Shown: piece after piece, positions 17,766-39,790 of the stretch
Position numbering within the stretch: the first letter of the stretch is position 1
Layout of the letters: every line of letters begins with the position of its first letter
NCBI GenBank assembly: GCA_030647435.1
Contig: JAUSJX010000081.1
Span: 2,913 to 66,912 of the forward strand
Length of the DNA stretch: 64,000 bases
Reading direction: 5' to 3'
From: Candidatus Rokuibacteriota bacterium
Lineage (GTDB): Bacteria > Methylomirabilota > Methylomirabilia > Rokubacteriales > CSP1-6
Translations under genes and position numbers: made by a program
Notes under the pieces: model-generated
Database searches by the model: none
What the model was told of the DNA's origin: nothing
What the model saw: only the letters and a program-made list of their open reading frames with translations

Positions 17766-17880
17766 GCCGCCGATAAGGGCCCATCTGCTTCGTTGGCGCC
17801 CTCGGCCGCAGGCTCAACGTAGCAGGGCTACGCCTCGCCTGCGACCTTCGAGCGCCGCCTCGCATCTGGACCCTTCTCGA
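17766..17880 (-). repeat. Intergenic repeat family R1 (~110 bp), copy 1
   Basis: Its reverse complement is ~90% identical to 28222-28330 (shared core cagatgcgaggcggcgc...cgcaggcgaggcgta...gagcctgcgg..agggcgccaacgaagcagatgg.ccttatcggc). Generates the spurious MRGGARRSQARR ORF. Confidence 0.8.
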
Positions 17881-17904
17881 CGCCCTCCACCTCGGACAAA
17901 GACT

Positions 17905-19065
17905 TCAGACCGCTTCGAGGAGTAGTCCCTTCAGGTAGCGGGATTCTGGGACGGTCAATAGGACGGGGTGGTCGCGGCTCTGGGACAGCGTGCGCAGCAC
18001 CCGCACGTTGACGCCCGCATCGCCGGCGGCCTCGCGGCAGATCTCCTCGAAGAGCCCCGGCGTGATGTGGTGCGAGCAGGAGAAGGTCGCCAGCACCCCG
18101 CCGGGCTCGAGCAGCCTGAGACCCCGGATGTTGATCTCCTTGTAGCCGCGCGCCGCCGCCTCGATCGCGTCCTTCCGACGCGTGAAGGGCGGAGGATCGA
18201 GGACGACCACGCCGAAGCGCTCGCCTGCCGCCTCGAGACCCCGCAGGAGGTCGAAGGCATTGCCCTCCCTGAGCTCCGCCCGGGCCGTCGCGCCGTTCAG
18301 CTCCAGATTCCGTCGCGCCAGCGCGAGAGCGGCGGCCGACGAATCGAGCAGGAGCGCCTGGGTAGCGCCCGAGCGAAGCGCGTGGCAGGCGAAGCCGCCC
18401 GAGAAGCAGAAGGCGTCGAGCACGCGCCGCCCGTCGGCATGCCGAGCTACGAGGGCGCGGTTCTCGGCCTGGTCGAGGTAGAGGCCGGTCTTGTGGCCCG
18501 CGCCGGGGGTGACGCCGAAGCGGCAGTCACCCTCGGTGACCACGAGCTCTTGCCCTGCCGGATCCTGGCGGGCGTCGAAGCCCTCGAGGTGTGCCGCCGT
18601 CGGCTCGTCGAGCCGGTGGATGCTCCCGTCGGGGAATTGCCGCCAAAGGGCTGCCAAGATCCAGCCCTCCGCCTTGAACATCCCGAGCGTCAGGCACTGG
18701 ACCACGCTCACGGGGCCGTAACGGTCCACCACGAGACCGGGCAGCCCGTCCGCCTCGCTCCAGCAGAGGCGATAGGCATCGGAGACCAGGCCTGCCGTCC
18801 GGCGGTACTCCCAGGCGGCCTCGAGCCGGCGCCTGAAGAACGCGGCGTCAATGGCCTCGTCACGCCTCGTGAGGAGGCGACAGCAGAGCGACGGGCGGGG
18901 ATTGTAGAAGCCCTGGCCGAGGTAGCGGCCGCCGGCATCCACCACCTCGACGGCCTCGCCGGCCTGCGAGAAGCCCTTGAGGTCGGCGACCTGCGTCCGG
19001 TAGATCCAGGGGTGGCCGGCGTTGACTCGATGCTCGGCGCCGCGCTTGAGAATGAGCCTGGCCAT
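17905..19065 (-). CDS. rlmI: 23S rRNA (cytosine1962-C5)-methyltransferase RlmI (PUA plus class I SAM MTase)
   Basis: 386 aa with an N-terminal PUA-like region, the SAM-binding motif VLDAFCFSGGF and the catalytic motif DPPPF. Confidence 0.8.
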   Translation of the reverse strand: MARLILKRGAEHRVNAGHPWIYRTQVADLKGFSQAGEAVEVVDAGGRYLGQGFYNPRPSLCCRLLTRRDEAIDAAFFRRRLEAAWEYRRTAGLVSDAYRLCWSEADGLPGLVVDRYGPVSVVQCLTLGMFKAEGWILAALWRQFPDGSIHRLDEPTAAHLEGFDARQDPAGQELVVTEGDCRFGVTPGAGHKTGLYLDQAENRALVARHADGRRVLDAFCFSGGFACHALRSGATQALLLDSSAAALALARRNLELNGATARAELREGNAFDLLRGLEAAGERFGVVVLDPPPFTRRKDAIEAAARGYKEINIRGLRLLEPGGVLATFSCSHHITPGLFEEICREAAGDAGVNVRVLRTLSQSRDHPVLLTVPESRYLKGLLLEAV

Positions 19066-19125
19066 AGTGGTCTAGACGCTCCCCCTCACTGTTTCAGCCC
19101 TCGCCTCACCGCTCGAGGCGAGCGT
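19066..19125 (-). repeat. Intergenic repeat family R2 (~55 bp), single copy
   Basis: Its reverse complement (gagctgaaacgctcgcctcgagcggtgaggcgagggctgaaacagtgaggg) closely matches the tandem units at 30961-31076. Confidence 0.7.
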
Positions 19126-19162
19126 TTCAGCTCGAACTCCGGCCCTCTCCCCCAGAGGGAGC

Positions 19163-19191
19163 GAGGGTTTCAATTCTCCCTCTCCCCGCTG
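19163..19191 (-). terminator. GC-rich perfect hairpin (10-bp stem ccctctcccc/ggggagaggg, loop gct) between the methyltransferase gene and rlmI
   Basis: Perfect inverted repeat read directly from the sequence. No clear U-tract follows, so it may be a processing or stability element rather than an intrinsic terminator. Confidence 0.35.
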
Positions 19192-19220
19192 GGGAGAGGG
19201 CCGGGGTGAGGGGAAACTCC

Positions 19221-19994
19221 TCAGAGCTTTCTCAGGACGACGACCATCAGGAGCGGGTGGTGGGCCCGGTCGAGCTTGAGGTGGGGCCTGAAGCCGTAGA
19301 ACCATTCGACCAGGTCAAAGCCTCCCGCCAATGCGACCAGCGCCCGGAGCTCCTGCGGAAAGACCATGCGGGAGGCGTGACGCTGGCGGTAGACGTGCCG
19401 GCGGCCGTCCTCGTGCGCCTCGAGCTCCATGTCCTCGTAGAACGTCTGGGTCACCGGGTTGAGGTCTTTGAGGGCCTCGAATGTCGCGCGCACCGTCGCC
19501 CGCCCGCGCCGCCTCGTCCAGGACCAGCGCCGCGCCGGGTCGGTCCACGACGAGCACATGTAGCGGTCGAAGACGTAGAGTCCGCCCTTGCGGACGGCCT
19601 TGGCCACGCAGCGGAGATGGGCCAGGATGGCCTCGTTCGTGAGCAGGTGCCCTTGCGAGTCCTGCATGCAGATGGCGGCGTCCACGGGGCGGGGCAGCGT
19701 GAAGCGGGTCATGTCCGCCACGTGGAGACCTACGTCGAGGCCCTCCTCCGCCGCCCGCTCCCGGAGGAAGGCGATATTCTCGGGCGACAGGTCGAGGCCC
19801 GACATGCGGTAGCCGCGCCGGCCGAGCCTGATCAGGTGCGGGCCCGTGCCGCAGGCGATGTCGAGCACGGTCTTCACGGGGCGCCTCGCATAGCGGCGGA
19901 AGCAGTGGGCGAGGAAGTCCACCTCCTGCTTCCGGTTCATGTCGAACGCGATCTCGTAGTAGCGCGGCGCCGAGTACTGACCCTTCTGGCTCAC
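19221..19994 (-). CDS. Class I SAM-dependent methyltransferase
   Basis: Motif I VLDIACGTG and motif II/post-I region. Likely GTG start at 19994 with a GAGG Shine-Dalgarno 5 nt upstream. The ORF-track ATG at 20075 would overlap speB by 77 nt. Confidence 0.65.
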   Translation of the reverse strand: MSQKGQYSAPRYYEIAFDMNRKQEVDFLAHCFRRYARRPVKTVLDIACGTGPHLIRLGRRGYRMSGLDLSPENIAFLRERAAEEGLDVGLHVADMTRFTLPRPVDAAICMQDSQGHLLTNEAILAHLRCVAKAVRKGGLYVFDRYMCSSWTDPARRWSWTRRRGRATVRATFEALKDLNPVTQTFYEDMELEAHEDGRRHVYRQRHASRMVFPQELRALVALAGGFDLVEWFYGFRPHLKLDRAHHPLLMVVVLRKL

Positions 19995-19998
19995 GGCC

Positions 19999-20856
19999 TC
20001 ATTTTCCCCACCAGGTGAGAATCGCCTCGCGGAGAATCCAGGAGGCGGTGATGCCCGTCCGCCCCGACGGGTCAAAGACGTGGGCGACCTCCATGAGATC
20101 GGTGCCCACGACCGTGCAGGGCTCGAGCAGCCGGACGATCTCGACCAGCTCAGAGGCCCTGAGCCCGCAGGGCTCGGGAGCGCCTGTCCCGGGCGCCTCC
20201 GATGGGTCGAGCACGTCCACGTCTATCGTGACGTAGAGCGGGTGCCGGCTGAGCTCGGGCACGAGGCTTCGGACGGCCTCGACCGGGTGGATGGCGTGCG
20301 CCGGGTAGAGGTGCGGCGCCCGGCGCCGGTACTCCTCGCGGGCACCCGTCCGCATGCCCACCTGGTAGACCCGCTCGGGCTCGACGACGTCCATCACGCG
20401 GGCCATGGCTGAGGCGTAATTGTAGCGCTCGCCGAGGAACTCTTCTCTCAAGTCGGGATGGGCGTCCAGCTGGAGGATGCGAAGGTCGGGGATGGCCGGA
20501 GCCAGGATCTCGATCACGGGCAAGGTCGCCGTGTGGTCGCCGCCCAGCATGACGGGCAGGAGGCCCGGCCGCCAGAAGCCGCGCACCTCCTCGCGGGCCC
20601 TCTGCAGCTGCTCCCGGGGGCTCCCAGAGCCCAGCTCGCAATCTCCCAGGTCGGCCATGCCGAGATCTTCCAGATCCCGATCGAGGGCGGGCGAGTAGGT
20701 CTCGATGGAGTCCGAGGCGATCCTGAGATCCCGGGGGCCGTGGTCGGCGCCGGTGCGGAGGTTGACGGAGCCTTCGAAGGGGATGCCGAAGAGGACGATA
20801 CGGGCGTCCGGGTAGGGCGCCCGGCACGCGATGAAGCGTGGGTCGGCTGGCGTCAC
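19999..20856 (-). CDS. speB: Agmatinase (arginase/ureohydrolase family)
   Basis: Mn-binding motifs GGDHTAT, DAHPD and TIDVDVLDPS. Confidence 0.8.
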   Translation of the reverse strand: MTPADPRFIACRAPYPDARIVLFGIPFEGSVNLRTGADHGPRDLRIASDSIETYSPALDRDLEDLGMADLGDCELGSGSPREQLQRAREEVRGFWRPGLLPVMLGGDHTATLPVIEILAPAIPDLRILQLDAHPDLREEFLGERYNYASAMARVMDVVEPERVYQVGMRTGAREEYRRRAPHLYPAHAIHPVEAVRSLVPELSRHPLYVTIDVDVLDPSEAPGTGAPEPCGLRASELVEIVRLLEPCTVVGTDLMEVAHVFDPSGRTGITASWILREAILTWWGK

Positions 20857-20922
20857 GTGGGTAGCTCGCCTCGGACGGCGGGGCCCCAGCCCCGCGACGT
20901 CCTGCAGTTCGCAGTTCCCGAA

Positions 20923-21405
20923 CTAAACGACGTCGTCGTCGGAGAGCAGCGTCACGGCCGCCAGGGCGCAGCCCGTGCGCTCGACGCGGTGCTCGACGGC
21001 GCAGACCTTCATGTCGCGGATCGTCCAGCCGCGGCTCTTGAACGACTCCTCCAGCATGTGGACGATGGCCCGTTCGGCCTCTTCCCGGGTGGCCTTGTCG
21101 TGAAATTCCATGATCACGCCGTTGGCCTTGGGGTCGGCGGGGCGGGCCCAGCCGACCGCGGCGGCGACCACTTCGCCGGGCACTTCGCTGGTCATGGCGG
21201 CGTAGGCCGTGGGCACGACCGCGCCGGGCCGGAGCCGGGGCAGGTCCACAATCGCGGCCTCGGGCGGCAGGATGGAGGAGACCTTCACGAGGTTGATGTT
21301 GCCGATGCCCGCCGCCAGGAGGGCGTTGTCGAAGGCGTTGAGCGGGGTCGTTCCCTCAGCGCTTCCGGACGTCGTGGCTGCCTTGGTCACCGGTTTCCAG
21401 CCCAT
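20923..21405 (-). CDS. pdaD: Pyruvoyl-dependent arginine decarboxylase (archaeal-type PdaD)
   Basis: 161 aa from an ATG at 21405 with a perfect GGAGG Shine-Dalgarno. The Ser-Ser self-cleavage site (LVKVSSILP) is characteristic of PdaD. The longer track ORF is an N-terminal over-extension. Confidence 0.75.
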   Translation of the reverse strand: MGWKPVTKAATTSGSAEGTTPLNAFDNALLAAGIGNINLVKVSSILPPEAAIVDLPRLRPGAVVPTAYAAMTSEVPGEVVAAAVGWARPADPKANGVIMEFHDKATREEAERAIVHMLEESFKSRGWTIRDMKVCAVEHRVERTGCALAAVTLLSDDDVV

Positions 21406-21719
21406 TTCTCCTCCTCGCCTCCTTGGTTGAAGTGAAACGCCGCGGAAATTTTTCTTCGCCCATGTTAGCGAGTCGGGAGTGGAACGCAAGAGAAAAGTGG
21501 CCGCCGGCCGGCTTCCGATCGCTCGGCCGGCGGCTCCACGGCGGCTCATCCCGCCGCTTGACGACCGCCGATCGGGCCCGCGGCGGGCGCCTCGGCCTCG
21601 CCGACAGCCTCCGGAGAGGGCATTTTTTCCTTGCAATGCTAAAAACATGGCCCTACATTCAGAAAAATCGCATTCGCAGGTTTTTCGCGAGCGAGAAACG
21701 AACGGAGAGGAGAAAAAGA

Positions 21720-22184
21720 GTGCAAGCACTGGGGCGACACCTGCTGCTCGAGCTGTTCGACTGCGACGCGGAAGCGCTTAACAGCCTTGAGACCGTGAAG
21801 GCGTCCATGGTGGAGGCGGCGAAGCGCGCCCAGGCCACCATCGTCGACGTCGTCTTTCACGAGTTCAACCCGTTCGGCATCAGCGGTGTTGTCGTGATCG
21901 CCGAGTCGCACCTCGCCATCCACACGTGGCCCGAGTACCGCTTCGCTGCGGTGGACATCTTCTCCTGCGGCGACGTGCTCCAGCCCCAGACGGCGGCCAA
22001 CTACCTGGTCGAGCAGTTCGGGGCCTGCCGGGCCTCCGTCGTCGAGCTCCAGCGCGGCATCTTTCTCCAGGCCTCACCCATGCCCCACAAGCCGGCCGGC
22101 GCCAAGATGCCAGTCGCCAAGGTGCCAGTCGCCAAGATGCCAGTCGCCAAGGTGCCAGGCGCCAAGGTGCCAGTGGGAGGATGA
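21720..22184 (+). CDS. speH: S-adenosylmethionine decarboxylase proenzyme (small pyruvoyl SpeH type)
   Basis: LGRHLLLELFDCD...ESHLAIHTWPE core. GTG start with a GGAGAGGAG Shine-Dalgarno. The C-terminus carries a (K-M/V-P-V-A)n tandem-repeat tail. Confidence 0.8.
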   Translation: MQALGRHLLLELFDCDAEALNSLETVKASMVEAAKRAQATIVDVVFHEFNPFGISGVVVIAESHLAIHTWPEYRFAAVDIFSCGDVLQPQTAANYLVEQFGACRASVVELQRGIFLQASPMPHKPAGAKMPVAKVPVAKMPVAKVPGAKVPVGG

Positions 22185-23101
22185 GCGGTCCCCCGCAGTA
22201 CAAGTGGTTCTTCGAGAGCACCACGCCGGTTGAAGGCCACATGCACGCCATCGCCCGCACCATCGCCACCCGCCAGACCAAGTTCCAGTTCATGGAGATC
22301 TTCGAGACTCACTCCTACGGCAAGGTCCTGGTCCTCGACGGCCGCATCCAGTCGAGCCAGCACGACGAGTTCATCTACCACGAGATCCTGGTCCAGCCGG
22401 GCCTCCTGGCACACCCAAAGCCGGTCCGCGCCATGGTCATCGGCGGGGGCGAGGGCGCCACGGTCAGGGAGATCCTGCGGCATCCGAGCATCAGCGACTG
22501 CCTCATGGTGGATATCGACGGCGAGGTGGTCGAGGAGTGTAAGAAGCACCTGCCCGAGATGCACCAGGGCGCCTTCGAGGACTCGCGCACCCGGGTGCTC
22601 CACGAGGACGCCCGGGCCTACCTTGAGAAGACCAAGGAGCGCTTCGACCTGATCGTGGTGGACTTGCCGGAGCCGCTCGGGGAGGGCCCGGCCTGCCTGC
22701 TCTTCACGACCGAGTTCTACACCCTGATCCGCGACCGGCTGACGGACAACGGGATCATGACCATGCAGGCGGGCATGACCAAGATCAACGAGCTGTTCTT
22801 CTACGGCGCCGTCAACCGGACCCTCCGCGAGGTGTTCCAGGTCGTCGCGCCGTACCAGGGCTTCATCTCCTGCTTCGGGACTCCCTGGGGCTTCATCCTG
22901 GCCTCCAAGGGCACCGACCCGCGCAAGCAGACGGCTCGCGAAATCGACGGGCTGATTTCTTCGCGGATGAACCCAGATACTCTCGGCTACTGGAACGGGG
23001 CCGCGCACCTGCACTCATTCAACCTGCCCAAGTTCCTGACCAATGCCCTGGCCAAGAACGACCGGGTCATTACGGACAAGAACCCCCTGATCGTCAGCTG
23101 A
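22181..23101 (+). CDS. speE: Polyamine aminopropyltransferase (spermidine synthase)
   Basis: WFFE...HAIA tetramerisation region, SAM-site motif VIGGGEGAT and DLIVVDLPEP. The ATG overlaps the speH TGA as ATGA. Confidence 0.85.
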   Translation: MSGPPQYKWFFESTTPVEGHMHAIARTIATRQTKFQFMEIFETHSYGKVLVLDGRIQSSQHDEFIYHEILVQPGLLAHPKPVRAMVIGGGEGATVREILRHPSISDCLMVDIDGEVVEECKKHLPEMHQGAFEDSRTRVLHEDARAYLEKTKERFDLIVVDLPEPLGEGPACLLFTTEFYTLIRDRLTDNGIMTMQAGMTKINELFFYGAVNRTLREVFQVVAPYQGFISCFGTPWGFILASKGTDPRKQTAREIDGLISSRMNPDTLGYWNGAAHLHSFNLPKFLTNALAKNDRVITDKNPLIVS

Positions 23102-23679: not shown

Positions 23680-24749
23680 CGGGGCGGCGGCTCTCCCGCA
23701 ACCGTGGCCCGCTCGAGCGGGCCGGTGCGGAGCAGGGGAGACCACCGGAACCAGGGCAGCTTGACGGCGGCGGGCATCTCGACGCGCTCGCGGGCCTGGC
23801 GAAGGCTCGCCTTGAGCATGTCTTCCGTGACCCGCCCACGGGGCAGATAGATCTGCCGCGCGCCGGCCACGCGCAGTGCGAAGTCGCCGGGCTGGCCGAT
23901 CACCGACGCCGGCAGGCCGGCGGCGAGCGTCTCCGCGGGGGCGTCGCTGACGCGGGCCACTGCGCGGAGGAGTGCCTTGGCCAGGGCGACGAGATCCTGC
24001 TCTCCGACTGCGGCGTCGGCACGGAGGAAGAGGGCGGCGTGGACCGTCTCGGCACCGAGCCAGCGGGCCGCGTCGGATCGGGTCCGCAGATCCACAAGTA
24101 TGGAGACTGCGTTTTTCTCAGCCCTCGGCTCGCCTTCGGCTGCGCCTCGAACTGCGCTCTTCTCAGCCCTCGGCTCGCCTCCGGCTGCGCCTCGAACTTC
24201 CACGTCTTCTACCAAGCGGGTGACCCAGGGGTCGGCCATGACGGCGGCCGCCACCTCACCCTGCTCGAGCGCGCCGGCGAGCGCACGGTTGGAGAAGCTC
24301 CTGAGCGGCACATGGTAGATCCTGACGCCCGCGCGCGCGAGAATGGTCGCGAGCATCGCCTGCTCGGGCGTGCCGACGCCGGGCAGGCCCACGGGCTGGC
24401 CGCGCAGGTCGCGGGGAGAGCGGACGGTCTCCTTGTGGCCCGGAGAGACGAGGATCGCGACAGGCGGCGCCGCCGTCAGGCCGAAGAGGAGCGGCGGCGG
24501 GGCGCCCTTGACATGTCCCAGGCGATAGGCCGCGTCGAGCGAGGTGGCGGCGATATCGGCGCGGCCCCGGGCCATCGCCTGCGCGGCGTCGCTCTCCGAG
24601 CGCTCGATCGTGAGCGTCACCTCGAGCTTCTCCTGGGCGAAGTATCCTTCCGACTGGGCGACGAAGAGCGGCAGGTACTCTGGCGAGGTTGCCGGTCCCG
24701 CCACAGCGATGGTGATCGCGGCCCAGAGTCCCAATCCCGCTGCCGTCAT
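23676..24749 (-). CDS. ABC transporter periplasmic substrate-binding protein (NMT1/SsuA/TauA-like)
   Basis: Signal peptide MTAAGLGLWAAITIAVAG, then an SsuA-like fold. Contains an in-frame 45-bp tandem duplication (VRGAAGGEPRAEKSA x2). Confidence 0.6.
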   Translation of the reverse strand: MTAAGLGLWAAITIAVAGPATSPEYLPLFVAQSEGYFAQEKLEVTLTIERSESDAAQAMARGRADIAATSLDAAYRLGHVKGAPPPLLFGLTAAPPVAILVSPGHKETVRSPRDLRGQPVGLPGVGTPEQAMLATILARAGVRIYHVPLRSFSNRALAGALEQGEVAAAVMADPWVTRLVEDVEVRGAAGGEPRAEKSAVRGAAEGEPRAEKNAVSILVDLRTRSDAARWLGAETVHAALFLRADAAVGEQDLVALAKALLRAVARVSDAPAETLAAGLPASVIGQPGDFALRVAGARQIYLPRGRVTEDMLKASLRQARERVEMPAAVKLPWFRWSPLLRTGPLERATVAGEPPPR

Positions 24750-24760
24750 CAAGCCTCCCC

Positions 24761-27052: not shown

Positions 27053-28162
27053 TCACCGGCGCTCGAGGGCGAGATCGATCAGGCGGGAGATCAGCTCGGT
27101 GTAGGAGATGCCCGAGGCCTCCCAGAGCTTGGGGTAGGCGCTCGTCGCGGTGAAGCCGGGCAGGGTGTTGATCTCGTTGACGAGCACGCCCGCCTCCCCC
27201 TCGATGAAGAAGTCCACGCGCGCGAGCCCCGCGCAGTCGATGGCCTTGAACGCGCGGATCGCCAGCTCGCGCACCCGCGCCGTCACCTCGGGGCCGAGCG
27301 GCGCCGGCACCTTGAAGGTCGTGTGGCCGGCACCGTACTTGGTCTCGTAGTCGTACCACTCGCGAGCAAAGCAGACCTGGCCCGGGACGGATGCCTGCGG
27401 CTCGTCGTTGCCCAGCACGGCGACCTCGACCTCTCGCCCCTGCACGGCGCGCTCGACCAGCACGCGGCGGTCGTGTCCGGCGGCCAGGGCCAGCGCGGCG
27501 GCCAGGTCCTCCGGCGCCTTGACCTTGCTGATGCCGACGCTCGAGCCGAGGTTGGCGGGTTTGACGAAGCAGGGGAATCCGATGGTTTCAGCGACGGCGC
27601 GCTCGATCGCGGCGGGGTCGCGCCGCCATTCGTGGCGCTTCACGACGAGATAGTCCACGACCGGCAGACCATGGGCGCGGAACATGTCCTTCATCGCGGC
27701 CTTGTCCATGCCGATGGCCGAGGCGAGCACGGCCGCGCCCACGTACGGCAGCCCCGCCAGCTCGAGCAGGCCCTGGATCGTGCCGTCCTCGCCGCGGGGG
27801 CCGTGGAGCATGATCCAGACCACGTCGAGCCGCTCACGGAGGCCCGGCGGCAGGCCCTCGCTCGACTCGACGCGCTGGAGCGCCGTCGAGGACGCCGCGC
27901 CGCCCGCGCGGACCGCGAGCTCCTGCTTGACCGACGCCTCGGGGCCGCCTTCGCCGAGCGCCTTGCCCGCGGCCTCCTGGGCGAGCGCCCGCAGCGGGTC
28001 GCCGCCCACGAGCCAGCGCCCCTCGCGCGTGATGCCGATCGGCACCGGCTCGAAGCGCTCGCGGTCCATGGCGGCCATCACGGACGCCGCGCCGGCGAGC
28101 GACACCTCGTGCTCGCCCGATTCGCCGCCGAAGACCACGCCCACGCGGAGCTTCTTCGCCAT
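27053..28162 (-). CDS. ddl: D-alanine--D-alanine ligase
   Basis: 369 aa ATP-grasp with Ddl motifs (VGVVFGGESGEHEVSL, HGPRGEDGTIQGLLELAGLPYVG, EINTLPGFT). Confidence 0.9.
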   Translation of the reverse strand: MAKKLRVGVVFGGESGEHEVSLAGAASVMAAMDRERFEPVPIGITREGRWLVGGDPLRALAQEAAGKALGEGGPEASVKQELAVRAGGAASSTALQRVESSEGLPPGLRERLDVVWIMLHGPRGEDGTIQGLLELAGLPYVGAAVLASAIGMDKAAMKDMFRAHGLPVVDYLVVKRHEWRRDPAAIERAVAETIGFPCFVKPANLGSSVGISKVKAPEDLAAALALAAGHDRRVLVERAVQGREVEVAVLGNDEPQASVPGQVCFAREWYDYETKYGAGHTTFKVPAPLGPEVTARVRELAIRAFKAIDCAGLARVDFFIEGEAGVLVNEINTLPGFTATSAYPKLWEASGISYTELISRLIDLALERR

Positions 28163-28221
28163 CGCCCTACTCTAACAGAGGGTCGCTAGATGGCCACGCA
28201 GGCTGTCGAGAAGGGGTCAGA

Positions 28222-28330
28222 TGCGAGGCGGCGCCCGAAGATCGCAGGCGAGGCGTACTCTCTGTACGTCGAGCCTGCGGTCAAGGGCGCCAACGAAGCA
28301 GATGGCCCCTTATCGGCAGCCTGCGCGCGT
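28222..28330 (+). repeat. Intergenic repeat family R1, copy 2 (overlaps the 3' end of the MFS gene)
   Basis: ~90% identical to the reverse complement of 17766-17880. Gives the spurious MRGGARRSQARR ORF on the track. Confidence 0.8.
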
Positions 28331-29632
28331 GAACTCCTTGAAGCGCACCGTGAGCGGTCCCAGCAGCGCCACGGCGCCGAGGAGCCCGAAGCCCCAGATC
28401 CACTTGGACTCGGCCGAGGCGCCCCAGCGCGGCGCCCAGTCGAGCACGAATCCCACGGCCCATGGTGACAGCGCGCCGGCCGTGAAGCCCACCGTGGACT
28501 GGAGCGCCATGGTTCGCCCGAGATAGGTCGACTCGGCCGCATCGGCGATGCCGGTCGAGACGATGGCCGACTCGGACGTGATGAGCACGCCGTAGAGGAG
28601 CCCGAGCGCGACGAGGGTGGAGAACGGCCAGGCGAGACCCCAGCCGATCGCGAACGAGCACGCCGCCGAGAGCAGCATGAGCACGCTGATCGGCCGCGCG
28701 CGGCCGAAGCGATCGGAGACCAGGCCCGTGAAGGGATGGGGCAGGGCGCCGATGGCCAGCACGGCCGAGGCCGCGAGCGCGGCCCGCTGGTTGGCCTCGG
28801 CCAGGGCCGCTCCCGAGGCGACGAGGCTCGCGGTGAAGAAGGGGACGATCCAGCCGCGCATGCCCATGAGCTCGAAGGTGTGCGCACCGTAGGCCGTGAT
28901 GAGCCGCATGGCGGGGCGGTTCTTGAGGACAGGGCCCAGCCGCTCTCTATTGGTGCTGGCGGCGCCTGGCCTCCCGCTCGAGGGAACGGGCTTGGGCGCA
29001 GCCGCCATCCCACGGGGCAGGACGAACCAGCCGATCAGCCCTGCCAGGAGCGGCCCCGCCGCCGTCAGCGCGAAGGCCCAGCGCCAGCCCCACAGCCCAT
29101 TGGCCCAGCCCGTCAGCAGGAGCGACACGGATGTGCCAAGGGTGAAGCTGCCGATATAGCAGCCCATGGCGAAGCCGCGCCGGCCTTCAGCGAAGCGCTC
29201 GGCGACCATGCGCATGCCCGGCATGTACGTGCCGGCGAGCCCGAGCCCGACGGCGCCGCGCAGGAGGATGGCCGAGAGGAACCCCTGCGCCCAGAACGCG
29301 AAGGCCAGGCTGGCCGCGGCCGTCCAGAACGCGCTCCAGAGATAGATGCGGCGCGGCGGCATGTAGTCGGTCAGGGTCGCGAGGATCATGACCGCGCCGA
29401 TATAGCCGAACTGGTAGAAGGAGACGATCAGTCCCGCCTCGCTATTGCTGAGCCCCCAGTCCTTCTGGAGGATGGGCAGGAGCGCCGAGAAGTTGGAGAA
29501 GACCAGCAGTGTCCCGAGCTCGGAGGCGCAGATGGCGGCGAGCCAGGCGCGGTCGCTGTAGGTGAACCGGCCGCGGGCGCTGTAGGTGAACCGGCCGCGG
29601 GCGCTGTAGGCGAGTCGGCCGCGGGCGCTCAC
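28310..29632 (-). CDS. MFS transporter
   Basis: 12-TM major facilitator pattern ([22 protein letters not shown] loop motif). GTG start at 29632 overlaps the rarA TGA. The N-terminus carries three tandem SARGR(L/F)(A/T)Y units encoded by 24-bp repeats. Confidence 0.7.
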
Positions 29633-30960: not shown

Positions 30961-31076
30961 ATACCCCGCAGTGCGAGCCGAAACGCCCGCCTCGGGCGGT
31001 GAGGCGAGGGCTGAGAGGCAGTGCGAGCCGAAACGCTCGCCTCGGGCGGTGAGGCGAGGGCTGAGAGAGTGGGGGG
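30961..31076 (+). repeat. Repeat family R2, two tandem ~57-bp units
   Basis: Unit gcagtgcgagccgaaacgc(c/t)cgcctcgggcggtgaggcgagggctgagag(g/a) repeated twice, related to 19066-19125. Each unit contains an internal inverted repeat (cgcctcg / cgaggcg). Confidence 0.75.
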
Positions 31077-32752: not shown

Positions 32753-33025
32753 CTAGACCGTGGCGCGTCGCGGCCCGGTGGCGCTCTTGACAGCCTGTCC
32801 CGCGAGGGACCGGCCCACCCGGATCAGCGCCAGCCCCAGGGCCACCCGCAGGGGAACGGGGGTCGGGCGCGTGGAGCCCATCAGTCTCGCCTGGGTCGCC
32901 ATGGCCCGCGCCTCTGCCAGCCGGTCTTTCCCGATCTGCTCAGCCAGGTAGTAGTTGATCACGTCCGTCCTCCTTTCGGGCCTCTCTGCCCGTCTTGCGG
33001 TCTCCGTAATAGTGTATTGGTACAT
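32753..33025 (-). CDS. Candidate small protein (90 aa), first gene of the gntR operon
   Basis: ATG at 33025 embedded in a palindrome (MYQYTITETARRAERPERRTDVINYYLAEQIGKDRL...). Its stop lies 11 nt before the gntR start. No family recognised. Confidence 0.3.
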   Translation of the reverse strand: MYQYTITETARRAERPERRTDVINYYLAEQIGKDRLAEARAMATQARLMGSTRPTPVPLRVALGLALIRVGRSLAGQAVKSATGPRRATV

Positions 33026-33045
33026 TGATACACTATTAACCGGCC
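33011..33045. promoter_or_regulatory. Perfect 10-bp inverted repeat AATAGTGTAT-N10-ATACACTATT, a candidate GntR-type operator
   Basis: Read directly from the sequence. GntR/FadR-type operators are GT..AC-containing palindromes. It lies at the 5' end of the small-ORF/gntR/HAD transcription unit. Confidence 0.45.
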
Positions 33046-33104
33046 ACACGCAACTCCCGGCGACATAGCTGGGCGGGCCCGAAAACACCCCCGCTCGCAG
33101 GCGG

Positions 33105-33235
33105 CTCAAAAAGGTCCAGATGCGAGGCGGCGCCCGCCGGCCGCACGCGAGGCGTACTCCTGTACGTTGAGCGTGCGGCCGAGGGCGCCCCCACAGTCTT
33201 CATGCTAAATGGCGCAGATGGGCCTTTTTCAGCCG
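33105..33235 (+). repeat. Intergenic repeat family R1, copy 3
   Basis: Shares the core ggtccagatgcgaggcggcgccc...cgcgaggcgtactcctgtacgttgagcgtgcggccgagggcgcc...gcagatgggcc with copies 1 and 2. Confidence 0.7.
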
Positions 33236-33241
33236 CCTGCA

Positions 33242-34588
33242 CTAGACGAGCCAGCGGAGGAGGAGGGTGGCGAGAGAGAGGAAGATCGTGACGCCGAGAA
33301 CGTCCTGGAAGGCGGTCTCGAACGGGCCGGCCGTGAGGGCGGGGTCGAAGCCCAGCCGCTTGGACAGCATGGGGATCGCCGTCCCCGCGCAGCCCGAGAG
33401 ATTGACCGAGACGAACATGGAGGTGGCGACCACGAACCCGAAGGTGAAGGAGTGCCACAAGAGCCCGATCGAGCCGACCACCACGGCGCAGACAGCCCCG
33501 AGGATGGCGGACGTCTGGGCCTGCCTCCAGAGCGGCTCCCACCACCGGCTGAGCTGGACCTGTCCCGTCGCCAAGCCCCGCACGACCATCGTTACCGACT
33601 GGAGGCCCGTATTGCCGGAGATCGCCTGGATCACCGGCATAAAGGACGCCAGGAGGATGACCTTGCCGAGGGTCTGGTCGAAGTAGTGGATGACCACGCC
33701 CGCCAGCATCTCGATCAGCAGCGTCAGCAGCACCCAGGGCAGGCGCAGCATGGCGACCTGGCGCGGGGAGCGGCGCTCGAGCTCGGCGGCATCCGAGCCG
33801 GCCATGCGGAAGATGTCTTCCGATGCTTCCTCCTGGACCACGTCCATGACGTCGTCCACGGTGATGGTGCCCACCAGCCGGTTCTGGTCGTCCACGACCG
33901 GGACGGTCACGAGGTCGTACTTCACGACGACCCGCGCGACCTCTTCCTTGTCCATCGTCGCGTTGACGCTCACGACCTCCTCCGCTTCGAGGATGCCGAG
34001 GATGAGGCTGCGCGGGTCGGCGAGAAGGAGGCGCCGGAGCGGCACCCGCCCGATGAGGTGCTGGTGATCGTCCACCGCGTACACGCCGAAGGGGCGCTCC
34101 TCGGTGACGGTCTTCCTGATGTGCTGGATGGCCTCCTCGACGGTCGACGTCTCGCGGATTGCCACGACGTCCTGGGACATGAGGCGCCCCGCCGAGTCTT
34201 CGGGATACTCGAGGATCTCCTGGATCTCTTCCGACTTCTCCTCTTCCATGAGGTCCAGGATCTTTTCCGCATGCTCGCTCGAGAGCTCGTCCACGACGTC
34301 GGCCGCGTGCTCCGCCGGCATCCGGTCGAGGATCATCGACACCTCGACGTCGTCCAGGGCGCGCACGAGCTCGAGCAGCGTGGCGTCGTCGAGCTCGGAC
34401 AGGACGTCGCCGGCCTGGTCCTGCCGGAGCGAGCGGAAGATCGTCGCGCGGTCGGCGAGCGGCAGCTGCTGGAGCACGTGGGCGATGTCGGCCGCGTGGG
34501 CTTCGACGAGCGCCTGAGTTGCGCGAACGTCGTCGCGGTTCTGGAGCAGCTCTTCGGCTGCGCGTAGCAGGCGCTCGCTCGTGTCCAT
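33242..34588 (-). CDS. mgtE: Magnesium transporter MgtE
   Basis: N-domain, tandem CBS domains, and the C-terminal MgtE TM domain (FMPVIQAISGNTGLQS...GFDPALTAGPF). ATG at 34588. The longer track ORF is an over-extension. Confidence 0.9.
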   Translation of the reverse strand: MDTSERLLRAAEELLQNRDDVRATQALVEAHAADIAHVLQQLPLADRATIFRSLRQDQAGDVLSELDDATLLELVRALDDVEVSMILDRMPAEHAADVVDELSSEHAEKILDLMEEEKSEEIQEILEYPEDSAGRLMSQDVVAIRETSTVEEAIQHIRKTVTEERPFGVYAVDDHQHLIGRVPLRRLLLADPRSLILGILEAEEVVSVNATMDKEEVARVVVKYDLVTVPVVDDQNRLVGTITVDDVMDVVQEEASEDIFRMAGSDAAELERRSPRQVAMLRLPWVLLTLLIEMLAGVVIHYFDQTLGKVILLASFMPVIQAISGNTGLQSVTMVVRGLATGQVQLSRWWEPLWRQAQTSAILGAVCAVVVGSIGLLWHSFTFGFVVATSMFVSVNLSGCAGTAIPMLSKRLGFDPALTAGPFETAFQDVLGVTIFLSLATLLLRWLV

Positions 34589-34694
34589 GGTGTGATCTCC
34601 GGAGTCGATTGTACCGGGCTGCCCGCGTTGCCGCGACGGAATATCCATCAGTAGAGGCCGGGCCGGGGCACCGTGGTAGCCTGACGGTATCCGT

Positions 34695-36089: not shown

Positions 36090-39064
36090 CCCGCCCGCTC
36101 CTCTCGGCCGCGCTCCTGCTTCTCTCCGTTGCCCCGGCTGCCGCCGTCGAGCCCGCGTTCAAGCTGCCGCCGCCAGACCTGGCCGAGGTCCTGCCGCTGG
36201 TCTCGCCGGCGCTGGACAAGCCGGCGCTTCCGGGCTCGCTCGCGGCGTATCCACCCTCGCCCCAACCCGTGCCGCCGCTGCCGCGGGCCCGCGTGGAGAC
36301 CGACCTCGCGGTCCAGCCCGTGGCGGCCGCGCCGCCGCCGCGCTTCCTCGCGTGCAACCCGCTCGGCACCGTGCTCGGCGTCGTCTCCGAGCTCGTCGAA
36401 TGCGGCCGCGCGCGCTTCCAGCGCGGCGAGTTCGAAGACGCGCGCGAAGCGCTCGACGGCGCCGCCAAGCGCGCGACCGAGGCGCCCCTGCTTCGAGAGG
36501 CGCGCTACTGGCTGGGCGAGACTTTGATCCGGCTCGGCCAGCCCGACCAGGCGGCGCAGGCGATGCTCCTCGTGGTCCAGGGCGACCCGCGCTCGGACGT
36601 GGGGTTTCACGCCGCGCTCAAGTATGGCTGGCTGTCGCTGATGGCGGGCGATCCGGCGCGGGGGCTCGCGACGCTGGACGCGCTCGTCAAGAGCGGTCCG
36701 CCTCCGGACCTCGTCCCCTGGGCGCAGCACGGCCGCGCCGTGGCGCTGTACGGTCTCGGGCGCTACGCCGAAGCGCGCGAGGTCTGGACCCGCCTCCTCG
36801 GCCGGACCCTGCCCGCGCCGGTGGCAGGAGAGGCGCCCTTCTGGCTCGGCGACACGCTGGGGCGGCTCGGCGAGTACAAGGAGGCCGTCGCGCGGCTCAA
36901 GACCTTTACCGGCGGCGGCCCGCGCCTCCAGATCGACACGGCGCTCCTGCGCCTCGCCTGGTGGAGCCGCGCGGCAGGTGAGCCGCTCGCGGCCGTGCAG
37001 ACCTACCGCGGGGTGATGTCGGCGTATCCGAAGATGCCCGAGATCCTCTGGGCGAGGGCCGGGCTCGCGCTGGCCCTCCTCGACCTCGACGACTATGCAG
37101 CCGCCCTCGCCGAAGCGCGCACGCTCGACGCCGCCGACAAGGCGGGCGCGCTCGGCCTGCCTGTACTCCTGGCAGTGGATCGTTGGGCGACTTCGAGCCG
37201 CCGCGCCGACGACGCGCGGGCGCTCGAGCAGGAGCTCCTCGGACGCACCCTCGAGCCCGCCACGCGCGCCTACGTCCTCCTGCTGGCCGGCGAGGTCGAG
37301 CGCGACGCCGGCCAGATGTCGGAGGCCCGCGGCCGCTTCGAGCTCGTCCTGGCGCGTCCCGGGGCGCCGGCGCTCGGCTGGTACGCGGGGCTGCGCCTGG
37401 CGCAGACGGATCTCGAGAGCCGCGAGATCGCCCAGGCGCGGACGCGCATCGACGCGCTCCTCAACGAGCCGCTGACGGCCGAGCTCCGCGGCGCGGCCCT
37501 CGCGCTCGGCGGCGAGGCCGCCTACGCCGGTCGCGCCTGGGACGAGGCCGCGGCGCGCTACAGCCGGTTTCTCGCCGAGTTCCCGACCTCGCCGCAGGCG
37601 CCCTCGGTCCTGCTGGCGCTAGGCTGGGCGGAGTTCCGCCGCGGGCGTCTCGAGGCGGCGCGCGACACCTGGACGCGCTTCGCCACGATTAACCGCGCCG
37701 ATCCGCGGGCGCCCGCCGCGCTCCTTCTGGCGGCGGAGCTCGCGGCGCGCTCGGGCGACACCGCGGGCGCCCGCGCGCTGCTCGACGGGCTCGTCACGCG
37801 CTACCCGGAAGGCGAGTACGCGGACATTGCGCGGCTCAACCGGTCGATCCTCGCCATCCGCGCCGGCCGGGCCCCGACTGTCCTCGCCGATCTCACGGAG
37901 CTGATCCGCCGCGCGCCGCTGTCTCCCTACGTCGGGCGGATGAGGCTCGCGCGCGGCGTGGTCCTCGTGACGACCGGCAAGGCCGCGGAGGCCGCGCGCG
38001 AGTTCAAGAGCGCGCAGGGGCAGGGCGAGGGCGCGTCGGCGAACCTGGGGCTCGGGCGCGTCGCTTTCGATCTCGGGCAGTGGGACGAGGCCGAGCGGGA
38101 ATTCGTCGAGGCGCGCGACACGGGGGCGGGCGCCGTCGCGGCTGCGGCCGAGTACGGCATGGCCGCCGTGTTGTGGAACCAGGGCAAGAGCGACGACTTC
38201 AAGCGCTTCGCCCAGGCGCTCCTCGCGCGGCCGGCCGATCCGGCGATCACGCCCTACGTGCTCGCGGCCGTGGCGGCGCTGGCGGCCGACGAGGGGCGGT
38301 GGAAGGACGCGCGCACGCTCGCGATGCGCGCGGTCAACGAGTTCCCGACGAGCGATGCCGCGCCGACGGCGCTGTCGCTCGTAGGCACGGCGGCCGCGCG
38401 CGCGGGGGAGTGGCCGGTGGCGAGCGAGAGCTTCCAGCTCCTGACCGGCCGCTACCCCGGCTACAAGACCGGACGCGAGGCGCGGCACGGCTACGCCGAG
38501 GCGGGCTATAGAACTGGCGCCCACGCGGAGGCGAGCGCGAGGCTCCAGGAGTTCATCGACGCATCGCCGAGGGACCCCGAGCTGCCGCGCGCGCTCGTAC
38601 TGCTGGGCCGTACCCGCGAGGCGGCCGGCGACGGGGCTGGGGCGCTCGACGTCTACACGCGCGTGGAGCGCGAGTTCCATGCCTTCCAGGGCGCGGCGCT
38701 TCTCGGCAACGCCAGGGTGCTCCTGCTCGCCGGAAACTGGGACGAGGCGCGGCCGCTCCTCGAGCGCGCGGTGGAGGCGGGGGATGGGGGGGTGGCTGCC
38801 GAGGCGGCGTACCGCCTCGGTGAAGGGCTCCGGGGCGCGGGCCGTCACCAGCAGGCCGTCGACTCGTACATGATGGCGGCCTACGTCGCGCCCGACACGC
38901 CGCTCGCGCGCCGCGCGCTCCTCGGCGCCGGGCAGTCGTTCACCGCGCTCAAGCAGCCCGACTCGGCGATCATCGTGTACAAGAAGCTGCTGGCGGGGAA
39001 GGGCGTCGAGCCGGACGTGGCCGACGCCGCGAAGAAGGGGCTGAAAGCTCTCGGGGTCAACTAA
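36086..39064 (+). CDS. Large secreted tetratricopeptide-repeat protein (992 aa)
   Basis: ATG at 36086 overlaps the upstream TGA. Signal peptide MTRPLLSAALLLLSVAPAAA, then extensive TPR-like repeats. The 1149-aa track ORF is over-extended. Confidence 0.65.
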   Translation: MTRPLLSAALLLLSVAPAAAVEPAFKLPPPDLAEVLPLVSPALDKPALPGSLAAYPPSPQPVPPLPRARVETDLAVQPVAAAPPPRFLACNPLGTVLGVVSELVECGRARFQRGEFEDAREALDGAAKRATEAPLLREARYWLGETLIRLGQPDQAAQAMLLVVQGDPRSDVGFHAALKYGWLSLMAGDPARGLATLDALVKSGPPPDLVPWAQHGRAVALYGLGRYAEAREVWTRLLGRTLPAPVAGEAPFWLGDTLGRLGEYKEAVARLKTFTGGGPRLQIDTALLRLAWWSRAAGEPLAAVQTYRGVMSAYPKMPEILWARAGLALALLDLDDYAAALAEARTLDAADKAGALGLPVLLAVDRWATSSRRADDARALEQELLGRTLEPATRAYVLLLAGEVERDAGQMSEARGRFELVLARPGAPALGWYAGLRLAQTDLESREIAQARTRIDALLNEPLTAELRGAALALGGEAAYAGRAWDEAAARYSRFLAEFPTSPQAPSVLLALGWAEFRRGRLEAARDTWTRFATINRADPRAPAALLLAAELAARSGDTAGARALLDGLVTRYPEGEYADIARLNRSILAIRAGRAPTVLADLTELIRRAPLSPYVGRMRLARGVVLVTTGKAAEAAREFKSAQGQGEGASANLGLGRVAFDLGQWDEAEREFVEARDTGAGAVAAAAEYGMAAVLWNQGKSDDFKRFAQALLARPADPAITPYVLAAVAALAADEGRWKDARTLAMRAVNEFPTSDAAPTALSLVGTAAARAGEWPVASESFQLLTGRYPGYKTGREARHGYAEAGYRTGAHAEASARLQEFIDASPRDPELPRALVLLGRTREAAGDGAGALDVYTRVEREFHAFQGAALLGNARVLLLAGNWDEARPLLERAVEAGDGGVAAEAAYRLGEGLRGAGRHQQAVDSYMMAAYVAPDTPLARRALLGAGQSFTALKQPDSAIIVYKKLLAGKGVEPDVADAAKKGLKALGVN

Positions 39065-39591
39065 TCGAGGGCGGCCACGACGTCGGACATCGGTGCGTGG
39101 TCACCCGCAAAGCGGTCCCGCCACTCGTAGCGCACGCGATCCGCCGGCCCCAGCACGAACACGCCGCCCTGCTGCACCGGATCCCCCCGCCGCGCGCCCT
39201 GCCTGAAGCCCTTCGCGAACGCCCGCAGACCCTTCACGAAGCTCCCGGGATGGAAGGTCCTGCCCCAGCCATAGGCGAGGCCGGCCGCGCGGAAGGCCTC
39301 CAGCGACGGGTCCGCGTAGAGCGGGCCCGCGTAGCCCGTGACTTCACGGAAACCCTTCAGGTACTCGGGCTTTCCCGGCCCGACGACGACGAGCGCGGCG
39401 CCCCGCCGGACTATCGAGGGCTCGGCGGCGGCCAGGTCAGCGACCTGCTGACGACAGAAGATTCAGCCGAAGTGGCGGACGAAGGCGAGGACGGCCTGCT
39501 GGTCGGCCCAGGAGCCGCCGAGCGTGACGGCGCGACCCTCGGCGTCGAGGACCGTGAGGCGCGCGAGCCGCGATGCCACAGTGTCGGACAT
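39061..39591 (-). CDS. Candidate selenoprotein: AhpC/TSA-like (Prx-like, PF13911-type) thiol-disulfide oxidoreductase with in-frame UGA (Sec43) in a U-x-x-C motif
   Basis: Minus-strand ORF from ATG 39591: MSDTVASRLARLTVLDAEGRAVTLGGSWADQQAVLAFVRHFG-[TGA 39465..39463]-IFCRQQVADLAAAEPSIVRRGAALVVVGPGKPEYLKGFREVTGYAGPLYADPSLEAFRAAGLAYGWGRTF...RVRYEWRDRFAGDHAPMSDVVAALD, ending TAG at 39063..39061. The reading frame continues through the TGA for a further 133 codons. The TGA sits at the first position of the redox dyad, where family members typically have Cys. Missed by the ORF track. Confidence 0.65.
39430..39462 (-). promoter_or_regulatory. Bacterial SECIS-like hairpin immediately downstream of the in-frame UGA
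   Basis: mRNA reads UGA-AUCUUCUGUC-GUCAGC-AGGUC-GCUGAC: a perfect 6-bp stem with a 5-nt loop containing GGUC, beginning 10-11 nt after the UGA. This spacing and loop are reminiscent of the E. coli fdhF SECIS apical loop. Confidence 0.55.
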
Positions 39592-39649
39592 GGCGCGATT
39601 CTACCCGCTTCCGGGTACTGGGCCAATTTGCTTTGCCAGATTTACTCAG

Positions 39650-39790
39650 CCCTTGCCTCACGGCGGGGCCGCTCAGCTCGAACCTCCACGTTCTCGGTCG
39701 CCAGCGACGCTCAACGTACACCCACGTACGCCTCGCGTGACTGGCTCCCTCGGGCCTCGTCTGGCTCGCAACCTGGCCCAGTACCGGACG
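39650..39790 (-). repeat. Degenerate copy of repeat family R1 with an R2-like tail
   Basis: Reverse complement contains cgcgaggcgtacgtgggtgtacgttgagcgtcg, which matches the R1 core, and ends ...ccgtgaggcaagggctgag, which resembles R2. Confidence 0.5.

Follow-up and report, generated by a model that had tools for sequence, protein, structure and literature searches.

R1, a hairpin repeat at stop codons in Rokubacteria and other bacteria, is probably a non-autonomous mobile element related to ERIC

R1 is a family of intergenic repeats with four copies (c1 to c4) in a 64,000-nucleotide stretch of contig JAUSJX010000081.1 (assembly GCA_030647435.1, positions 2,913 to 66,912 of the forward strand) from a Candidatus Rokuibacteriota bacterium of the phylum Methylomirabilota, a stretch hereafter called the window. 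Comparative analysis indicates that R1 is probably a non-coding, non-autonomous mobile repeat, that is, a MITE (a miniature transposable element with inverted repeats), of a superfamily related to ERIC, the repetitive intergenic consensus of enterobacteria. It lodges at the 3' ends of genes, typically with one fixed end on or a few bases after a TAG or TAA stop codon, and persists there as a long hairpin kept by compensatory substitutions; close relatives differ by gains and losses of the element, by tandem duplications and by internal deletions. R1 is small, non-coding and multicopy and has inverted terminal repeats, the features by which MITEs are recognized. As a kind of element it is ordinary; the branch is new to the ERIC link and lies in phyla without known ERIC-like repeats, and its association with stop codons and its strand bias are unusually sharp. 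A sequence-only reading of the window had proposed a structured RNA or MITE-like element. MITE-like behaviour is borne out by the TA that bounds the outer inverted repeats and by the states of orthologous sites, which occur filled, empty, duplicated or deleted; not foreseen in that proposal were the exact abutment of stop codons with a constant orientation, the asymmetry of the strands, the kinship with ERIC and the composite make-up of c4.

Structure and strand asymmetry of the hairpin

As DNA, R1 is an imperfect palindrome of 125-130 bp. Each of c1, c2 and c3 folds as a single long interrupted hairpin (-89.3 to -103.8 kcal/mol, with z scores of -8.3 to -11.5 against shuffled sequences). The apex core is invariant in the alignments, and the termini vary between lineages. 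The core follows the pattern GCGAGGCGTAS-N3-7-STACGTYGAGC, for which 0.00 chance occurrences are expected in the window (G+C content 70%). At the apex, a 7-bp stem (GGCGUAC/GUACGUU, its two basal pairs being G.U) stands above a symmetric 2x2 GA/GA internal loop, followed downward by a variable 10-bp stem, a GGCGCCC/GGGCGCC stem, a conserved internal loop (5' GCGAGGC, 3' AACGAAGC), a further GA/GA loop within CAGAUGC/GCAGAUGG, and two lower stems. In subtype B (c3), the Nitrospira subtype and many other copies, the GC-rich hairpin is flanked by A5 and U5 (CAAAAAGG...CCTTTTTCAG), whereas subtype A (c1 and c2) has CUUAUC/CUUCUC in place of the U-run.

Compensatory double changes occur in 23 of the 47 base pairs among 24 copies from Rokubacteria. 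When 61 copies from other phyla were aligned to the Rokubacteria model, 40 of 47 pairs covaried and 89.7% of the cells were paired, compared with 26-41% for slid partners in the controls, and none of 500 shuffles reached the observed values. Even 12 copies at one orthologous site covary in 16 of the 47 pairs, with 95.6% of cells paired. The lower arms differ between lineages, with pairing kept; a cross-phylum MAFFT alignment analyzed with RNAalifold misaligned these arms and recovered the upper stem only, so that model-guided alignments were used instead, and automatic boundary calling from minimum-free-energy (MFE) folds was too noisy.

The two strands of the element are not equivalent. On the sense strand, G.U oppositions far outnumber A.C oppositions, by 89 to 5 in the Rokubacteria copies and 226 to 26 in the copies from other phyla, and purine-purine mismatches are far commoner than pyrimidine-pyrimidine ones. 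The sense strand is the more stable one in all 85 copies compared (means of -100.9 versus -83.3 and of -66.1 versus -56.4 kcal/mol), and covariance models score it 60-90 bits above its complement. The G.U bias, the stability and the model scores together indicate that the hairpin is constrained as a single strand of one polarity.

Absence of coding capacity

The sequence-only reading had considered R1 non-coding and had blamed it for spurious open reading frames (ORFs) in two places, and both views agree with the present results. ATG-initiated ORFs begin in c2 and c3, the 'MRGGARRSQARR' frame starting from an ATG inside CAGATGCGAGGC and the c2 ORF spanning 28221-28526. The ATG of the MRGGARR frame is missing from Nitrospira, Geobacter and subtype-C copies, loop lengths range from 3 to 7 nt, indels between copies are not multiples of three, and variation in the stems is compensatory. 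Coding constraint in place of structural covariation, the second outcome under which the sequence-only reading would have failed, is thus not what the alignments show. A conserved small ORF in the 5' segment of the Nitrospira element (ATG/GTG/TTG followed by GC) was also considered and rejected, its frames stopping after 5-6 codons. At gathering thresholds Rfam had no match in the whole window, and at E<=10 it returned nothing usable for c2 and one Nitrospira copy, the best sub-threshold entry being chrB-a (13.3 bits, E 7). A blastn search of plasmids with c2 and a Nitrospira copy gave no match.

Abutment of stop codons

Of 102 instances with a long opposite-strand ORF on the 3' side, 66 have the stop codon of this ORF 30-59 nt beyond the core, and in 24 instances of the Nitrospira subtype a TAG or TAA stands exactly at +47. 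Within the window, c1, c2 and c3 all follow this rule of a 3' end at an opposite-strand stop, and c4 has the reverse orientation. With respect to the transcription of neighbouring genes, orientation is mixed, c1 and c4 being sense and c2 and c3 antisense.

The window contains two genes, ending at 61343 and 62548, that carry a TAG without an element; in their orthologues in the Methylomirabilota metagenome-assembled genomes (MAGs) L104 and L038 (77-81% nucleotide identity), the element adjoins the same TAG. The occurrence of this TAG at empty orthologous sites rules out a stop codon supplied by the element and indicates that the stop is native. An exception is presented by c2 and similar subtype-A copies, in which the ORF continues for about 15 nt inside the element until it meets an internal TAA.

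At the c2 site, approximately the last five codons and the TAA of the MFS transporter gene are encoded by the outer arm of the repeat (28310-28326). Since these C-terminal codons lie inside c2, the repeat has remodelled the C-terminus of a real protein. The opposite-strand ORF ends at the same internal TAA in the subtype-A copies L015, L021 and L088. L015 had also been a candidate orthologue of c1; blastn aligns the element only, and it is a copy of the same subtype located elsewhere.

Gain, loss and rearrangement at orthologous sites

The site beside the MgtE gene, occupied in the window by c3, could be followed through 80 orthologous metagenome loci retrieved with the MgtE C-terminus (86-99% amino-acid identity), the interval being measured from the MgtE stop to a conserved palindromic operator upstream of gntR. 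This interval is 31-69 nt at empty sites and 154-205 nt at sites with one copy, which has a constant orientation and starts 0-7 nt after the stop; two copies in tandem bring it to about 300 nt (L140, L167), and approximately three to 326 nt (L155). Depending on the lineage, the occupant belongs to subtype A or subtype B. Deletion derivatives are also found, L131 retaining only the first 21 nt of the element and L145 lacking the apex. In L130, whose MgtE is 99% identical to that of the window, the hairpin is absent, the gap lying exactly between the GCGG direct repeats by which it is bordered in the window, and a segment of the c3-type 5' extension (equivalent to 33068-33086) is retained; a deletion between the direct repeats explains this locus better than an empty site, as which it had first been considered. 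Insertion polymorphism is therefore seen both here, where the site occurs empty, filled, tandem and deleted, and at the sites filled in L104 and L038 and empty in the window.

The tandem arrays at the MgtE stop (L140:1522-1767, L167:1658-1918, L155:1653-1920), which come from Rokubacteria metagenome contigs, are reminiscent of BIME-like clustering. Between the gntR-family gene and c3, at 33009-33036, stands the operator-like palindrome ATAGTGTATCAATGTACCAATACACTAT; over 50 orthologous metagenome loci have it conserved, and the GntR regulator itself probably binds there.

Element ends

Fuller versions of R1 carry, ahead of the palindrome, an additional TA-bounded outer inverted repeat, RCAGGMTGCKGAAAAA. 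The Nitrospira element, of approximately 200 nt, consists of TA and the outer repeat RCAGGCTGCGGAAAAAC, then a spacer about 60 nt long, then a 124-nt hairpin; this hairpin makes up the right-hand two-thirds of the element, and its last arm is the matching outer repeat, followed by TA. In subtype B of Rokubacteria the outer left repeat stands directly against the hairpin. An nTAn tetranucleotide precedes 99 of 166 outer repeats (CTAG in 50, GTAG in 9), versus 8 of 125 inner arms and a background TA frequency of 2.1%. In the window, c3 has TA at 33066-67 and 33243-44, and its 5' extension matches the TA|RCAGGMTGCKGAAAAAC left end of other subtype-B and Nitrospira copies. The spacer of the Nitrospira element is semi-conserved (…CTCGGTTTATACA…TATGGCRCTGATG…AATAA; for example, L119:3478-3553, L010:3505-3580 and L113:632-721 on the minus strand), and no conserved ORF was found in it, its candidate roles being those of a promoter or a second structure.

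Distribution beyond the window

A scan of species-representative genomes for the exact 22-nt apex core found at least 120 loci, which disposes of a local duplication confined to the window, one of the two outcomes by which the sequence-only reading had said its proposal would fail. Among the matches listed, approximately 60 are from Nitrospira and other Nitrospirota, about 33 from Rokubacteria and other Methylomirabilota (copies similar to those of the window) and about 12 from Geobacteraceae and Desulfuromonadales, including the isolate Geobacter hydrogenophilus; a few others are from Bacillota, the candidate phyla radiation, Planctomycetes, Acidobacteriota and one gammaproteobacterial MAG. 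Single 8-kb loci can hold several copies, and the genes flanking different copies are unrelated to one another. A Logan contig (SRR13727527_49090, L128), which encodes a Ddl identical to that of the window, ends 74 nt upstream of ddl, inside c2 (compared with window positions 28162-28236); here the repeat has broken the assembly, as repeats are expected to do.

Relationship to ERIC and other known repeats

The similarity to ERIC is reciprocal. An R1 covariance model built from 61 copies of neither rokubacterial nor enterobacterial origin was run with filters off on seven ERIC loci from six genera (37 kb), and it ranked ERIC first in five of the seven, over its full length and on one strand, with scores of 33.3, 26.6, 20.7, 16.8 and 16.1 bits (E values of 1e-6 to 3e-3 for the top three). 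Background matches did not exceed 13.4 bits, and the complementary strand of ERIC never appeared within the E<=10 list. Conversely, when a model made only of the seven ERICs was applied to 94 kb of Nitrospira DNA, R1 copies accounted for 10 of the 13 matches, on the correct strand and with the top six at 21.5-15.5 bits, and R1 copies were likewise the top matches of this model in the window together with the loci.

Several structural and positional features are shared. ERIC of Escherichia coli is approximately 127 nt long and, like R1, forms a single long interrupted hairpin. It has an RAAGGCG...CCAACGC inner loop and a 2x2 GA/GA loop beneath a G.U-closed apical stem of 6-7 bp (GAGCUUAC-AUAA-GUAAGUGAC); GAAGGCGACAAGCGAGTGAA in E. 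coli corresponds to CAAGGCCGCAGCGAGCGAAG in Nitrospira, and GCCAACGCA is found on the 3' side. It is also intergenic, has TA at its ends as fuller R1 copies do, and one particular end lies on or beside stop codons; the opposite-strand stop (that of ybhI in E. coli) is at the same end as in R1, a geometry seen in three of the seven ERIC loci examined. The differences include the apex, which is GGCGTAC/GTACGTT in R1 and GCTTAC/GTAAGT in ERIC, the GC-rich arms of R1, and the extra outer left inverted repeat, with or without the spacer of about 60 nt, of many R1 copies. Similarity scores are modest, and the window's own copies are not significant alone. ERIC occurs in Enterobacterales and Vibrionaceae, whereas R1 occurs in Methylomirabilota, Nitrospirota, Desulfobacterota and others, and because of this difference in host range R1 is filed as a related family and not as ERIC proper. 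ERIC itself is known as a MITE that has inverted terminal repeats and duplicates TA and whose transcript is a long stem-loop (PMC2229807, PMC3184786, PMC10969869). In the literature searched, no paper was found that links R1-type repeats to ERIC, and a search with the core sequence gave chance primer matches only.

Elements of the same kind have been described in Geobacter. Aklujkar et al. (2009) reported 24 copies in G. metallireducens (Gmet_R1001-R1024, corresponding to GSU0160.1) as predicted short RNA elements of group 1 (PMC2700814), to which no function or class was assigned and which were read as regulatory RNAs, unlinked to ERIC or mobility. In comparisons made by eye and by folding, these sequences resemble R1 in being about 112-115 nt long, intergenic and multicopy and in folding as one hairpin of similar length. 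Their central palindrome, GRCGTAGCGCTGCTACGCC, reads on the other strand as GGCGTAGCAGCGCTACG, which is the apex of copies L018, L042 and L045, and Geobacteraceae copies with the exact R1 core are found in L055, L075, L078 and other loci. The G. metallireducens copies differ in having CGCCCACAAGG instead of CGTTGAGC just 3' of the apex. R1, the Geobacter elements and ERIC are likely to constitute one superfamily, with the Nitrospira subtype as a bridge between them.

Other families of short palindromic elements are less similar. Correia/NEMIS elements of Neisseria and RUP of the pneumococcus share with R1 a length of 100-160 bp, inverted terminal repeats and TA termini, and they are co-transcribed with their neighbours and processed by RNase at the hairpin (PMC2229807, PMC10969869). 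However, they have no sequence relationship to R1, are conserved at their termini, and have not been reported, in the literature consulted on them, to abut stop codons with equal precision. REP/BIME and REPIN repeats are likewise extragenic palindromes at gene ends, with REPIN hairpins of about 100 nt, and are strand-specific single-strand substrates; the REP unit, however, measures 20-40 bp with a GTAG/CGTC tag, compared with 125-130 nt and mostly CTAG for R1. Each REP family is confined to a lineage and associated with a RAYT gene; no such features were seen with R1, for which no search aimed at a RAYT gene was made.

Alternative explanations

A number of observations weigh against R1 as an ERIC-related MITE. 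The strand asymmetry is unexplained by double-strand cut-and-paste, and the conservation of the apex together with lineage-variable termini is the reverse of what a classical transposase-bound MITE displays. In the commonest orientation, it is the antisense strand of the neighbouring gene that folds better. In copies made up of the hairpin alone, c1 and c2 among them, TA stands at a single end, the stop-codon side, and no clean target-site duplication could be demonstrated; near-identical pairs of filled and empty sites showed none either, and the duplications for which the sequence-only reading had suggested looking did not turn up. Approximately 1 Mb of loci yielded neither a transposase nor an autonomous parent sharing the ends of R1; a search of 120 loci for inverted pairs of outer repeats 0.7-3 kb apart was also negative, although it is a weak one, being confined to DNA around existing copies. 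With regard to ERIC, the window's own c2 scores only 10.5 bits (E 7.8) with the ERIC model, and the similarity depends chiefly on the intermediate Nitrospira subtype. Mis-binning of MAGs may also account for part of the phylum range.

The conserved apex, the antisense position of the folded strand, the lack of a partner insertion sequence and the lack of a clean duplication keep alive, as a rival, the mobilization of the hairpin through a single-stranded intermediate, whether by a REPIN/RAYT-like, an IS200/IS605-like HUH or an RNA-mediated route. In this scenario, which is rather unlikely overall, the conserved apex would be the recognition site of the enzyme, and insertion would occur directly 3' of NTAR (TAG/TAA) with no duplication. 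Such a route would account for the greater stability of the sense strand in every copy and its roughly 10:1 excess of G.U over A.C, for an apex invariant across phyla with variable termini, for hairpin-only copies with TA on the stop-codon side only and no visible duplication, and for the fixed orientation relative to the target. However, of the two strands it is the weaker folder that has the target at its 5' side, TA stands at both ends of the fuller copies and of ERIC alike, and the window copies face both ways within 22 kb with no replication-direction bias. REP units are much shorter (20-40 bp) and bear GTAG/CGTC tags, whereas CTAG (50) prevails over GTAG (9) in R1, and no Y1/HUH transposase, TnpB or reverse-transcriptase gene was seen beside the copies, no systematic search having been made.

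That R1 serves mainly as a portable and often bidirectional intrinsic terminator placed right after stop codons, comparable to the pneumococcal SPRITE element, is improbable for the family as a whole. The A5 and U5 flanks of subtype B, the Nitrospira subtype and many others would yield a U-tract after the hairpin on either strand, copies lie between convergent genes or at gene ends, and c3 parts mgtE from the operator and promoter region of gntR; for subtype B and the Nitrospira copies a terminator role is plausible. It is not plausible for subtype A; c1 and c2 lack the U-run, and c2 lies inside an apparent MFS-ddl operon. Moreover, a simple promoter and terminator scan, on the whole uninformative, flagged no window copy as a terminator, ERIC has no U-tract, and a stem of approximately 50 bp with conserved internal loops and apex exceeds what a terminator needs.

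It is very unlikely that R1 is a family of functional RNA elements not mobile as such. Covarying structure with a G.U bias on one strand, an apex motif conserved across phyla, the semi-conserved segment of about 60 nt upstream of the Nitrospira hairpin and the annotation of 24 G. metallireducens copies as short RNA elements (PMC2700814) would all suit an RNA. The family nevertheless has no Rfam match even at E<=10, the same scan found no promoter-like sites near the window copies, and orientation to neighbouring transcription is not uniform. High copy density among unrelated flanking genes, TA-bounded inverted-repeat termini, and the nested insertions, tandem arrays, deletions and presence-absence variants at orthologous sites likewise speak against it. 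Finally, a protein-coding mini-gene (the MRGGARR... ORF that starts in c2 and c3) or an integron attC-type recombination site is effectively refuted by the alignments and can be given next to no weight: the coding frame fails on the grounds given above, and although attC sites are strand-specific imperfect palindromes after cassette stop codons, inspection of the hairpin base revealed no RYYYAAC/GTTRRRY boxes, and instead of cassettes the flanks hold housekeeping genes spaced 5-10 kb apart.

Copies in the window and neighbouring repeats

A covariance model of 24 related copies, applied unfiltered to the entire window, located the four copies, which are its only credible matches there (Table 1). 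They correspond to the four related copies that the sequence-only reading had placed at or near the same coordinates, between the same genes as are now supported by Pfam. The earlier figures of about 90% identity and about 110 bp have to be corrected: c1 and c2 are 86% identical over 125 nt (17762-17886 versus 28200-28324), both are 80-85% identical to c3 in the same repeat search, and the canonical copy is 127-131 nt long, c3 reaching 148 nt because of a 24-nt segment in its 3' arm. The fourth copy had been called degenerate. It is indeed divergent, but it is not merely degenerate, as it represents a subtype of its own with a nested 50-nt unit. It has the apex core and the architecture common to c1-c3, and without the nested unit it folds as a 127-nt hairpin (-70.9 kcal/mol). 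In alignments, subtype C is a separate subtype, present intact in other Rokubacteria contigs (L082, L089, L080, L094 and L016), with terminal stems of GGTACTGGG.CAAGTTGCGAGCCAGACGAGGC.

Table 1. Copies of R1 in the window, with their parts and flanking genes
Feature	Positions	Strand	Description	Basis
c1	17760-17890	-	Subtype A, 131-nt hairpin; 130 bits; MFE -89.3 kcal/mol, z -8.3	Covariance model, folding
c1 apex core	17812-17838	-	Equivalent of c2 core	Pattern search
c1 flank, RlmI-like gene	17905-19065	-	Stop 15 nt before 5' end of c1	Pfam
c1 flank, CopD gene		+	TAG at 17760-17762 overlapped by 3' end of c1	Pfam
c2	28196-28326	+	Subtype A; 145 bits; MFE -100.7 kcal/mol, z -11.5	Covariance model, folding
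c2 apex core	28248-28274	+	GCGAGGCGTAC-N5-GTACGTCGAGC	Pattern search
c2 flanks, MFS gene and ddl		-	MFS TAA at 28310-28312, within 3' arm of c2	ORF list, Pfam
c3	33095-33242	+	Subtype B, 148 nt; 106 bits; MFE -103.8 kcal/mol	Covariance model, folding
c3 apex core	33147-33172	+	Equivalent of c2 core	Pattern search
c3 5' extension	33066-33094	+	TA (33066-67), then outer inverted-repeat-like segment GCTGGGCGGGCCCGAAAAC (33068-33086)	
c3 segment	33190-33213	+	24 nt in 3' arm instead of the otherwise conserved AACGAA internal loop	cmsearch alignment
c3 flanks, GntR and MgtE genes			3' end of c3 adjoins MgtE TAG at 33242-33244 (- strand)	Pfam
c4	39611-39787	-	Subtype C; match 39662-39783, 20.8 bits, E 0.019	Covariance model
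c4 apex core	39709-39736	-	Equivalent of c2 core	Pattern search
c4 nested unit	39639-39688	-	50 nt of a second small hairpin repeat family, in 3' arm of c4 beside GAGAACG loop	
c4 flank, SdhB-like gene	39813-40796	-	25 nt upstream; c4 in sense orientation	Pfam
c4 flank, AhpC-like gene			On the other side of c4	Pfam

The second repeat family is represented in the window at 19082-19142(-), 24106-24195(-), 30966-31076(+) and 39639-39688(-). Its unit is a hairpin of approximately 45-50 nt (GAGCYGAAACGCYCGCCTCGRGCGGTGAGGCGAGGGCTGAG), often in tandem pairs, which are 98% identical at 30968-31067; c4 carries one unit in its 3' arm, and the related copy L080 contains two nested ones. Nested small hairpins (e.g., CCTGGTGAGAGGCGCGTCTCGGTGCGCCGGGG) also occur in Nitrospira copies of R1 next to the conserved AAGGC/AACG internal loop: L019 and L099 have them in the 3' arm, L077 and L098 in the 5' arm, and L028 is a further case. 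This internal loop, at which the nested unit of c4 is also located, may be a hot spot for secondary palindromic elements. Two tandem repeats of the window, one with a 15-nt period and about six copies (CAAGGTGCCAGTCGC-like, 22088-22174) and the other with a 24-nt period and 3-4 copies within the MFS ORF (29537-29629), are likely to be coding peptide repeats.

Proposed behaviour and implications

If R1 is a MITE of the ERIC-related superfamily, it would be mobilized in trans by a TA-targeting transposase, the candidate usually assumed being an IS630/Tc1-mariner-type enzyme. If it behaves as ERIC does in Yersinia, R1 would be co-transcribed with its flanking genes and would form a long interrupted RNA hairpin in the 3' untranslated or intercistronic region, where it may alter mRNA stability, processing or read-through in an orientation-dependent manner; in Yersinia, the orientation-dependent effect of ERIC on the stability of flanking mRNA operates via an RNase E site in one of the repeats (PMC2229807, PMC10969869). 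In the common orientation, following the model for ERIC, a ribosome at the abutting stop codon might hold the proximal arm open and expose the distal U-rich arm. A bolder view, which is unlikely, is that R1 and ERIC form an ancient cross-phylum class of mobile hairpins that fold by themselves, in which the invariant apex (the GA/GA loop with the G.U-closed stem), and not the termini, is recognized on one single strand, of DNA or RNA, and the element is delivered immediately 3' of TAG/TAA stops. If true, this would represent a stop-codon-targeting, strand-specific mobilization distinct from that of MITEs whose inverted repeats are acted on by a transposase, possibly with a hairpin-binding factor encoded by the host or by an element.

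In practical terms, R1 gives rise to spurious ORFs, altered protein C-termini, as in the MFS gene, and broken metagenome assemblies. For decades ERIC has served as a typing target. The relatives found in Nitrospirota, Methylomirabilota and Geobacter would extend the ERIC-related family across phyla, with an almost invariant apex, a strong strand-specific constraint on structure and a precise abutment of stop codons, and the R1 family offers an explanation for the short RNA elements of Geobacter. Geobacter and Nitrospira are, moreover, culturable systems in which both the RNA-level effect and the mechanism of mobility of these repeats can be approached.

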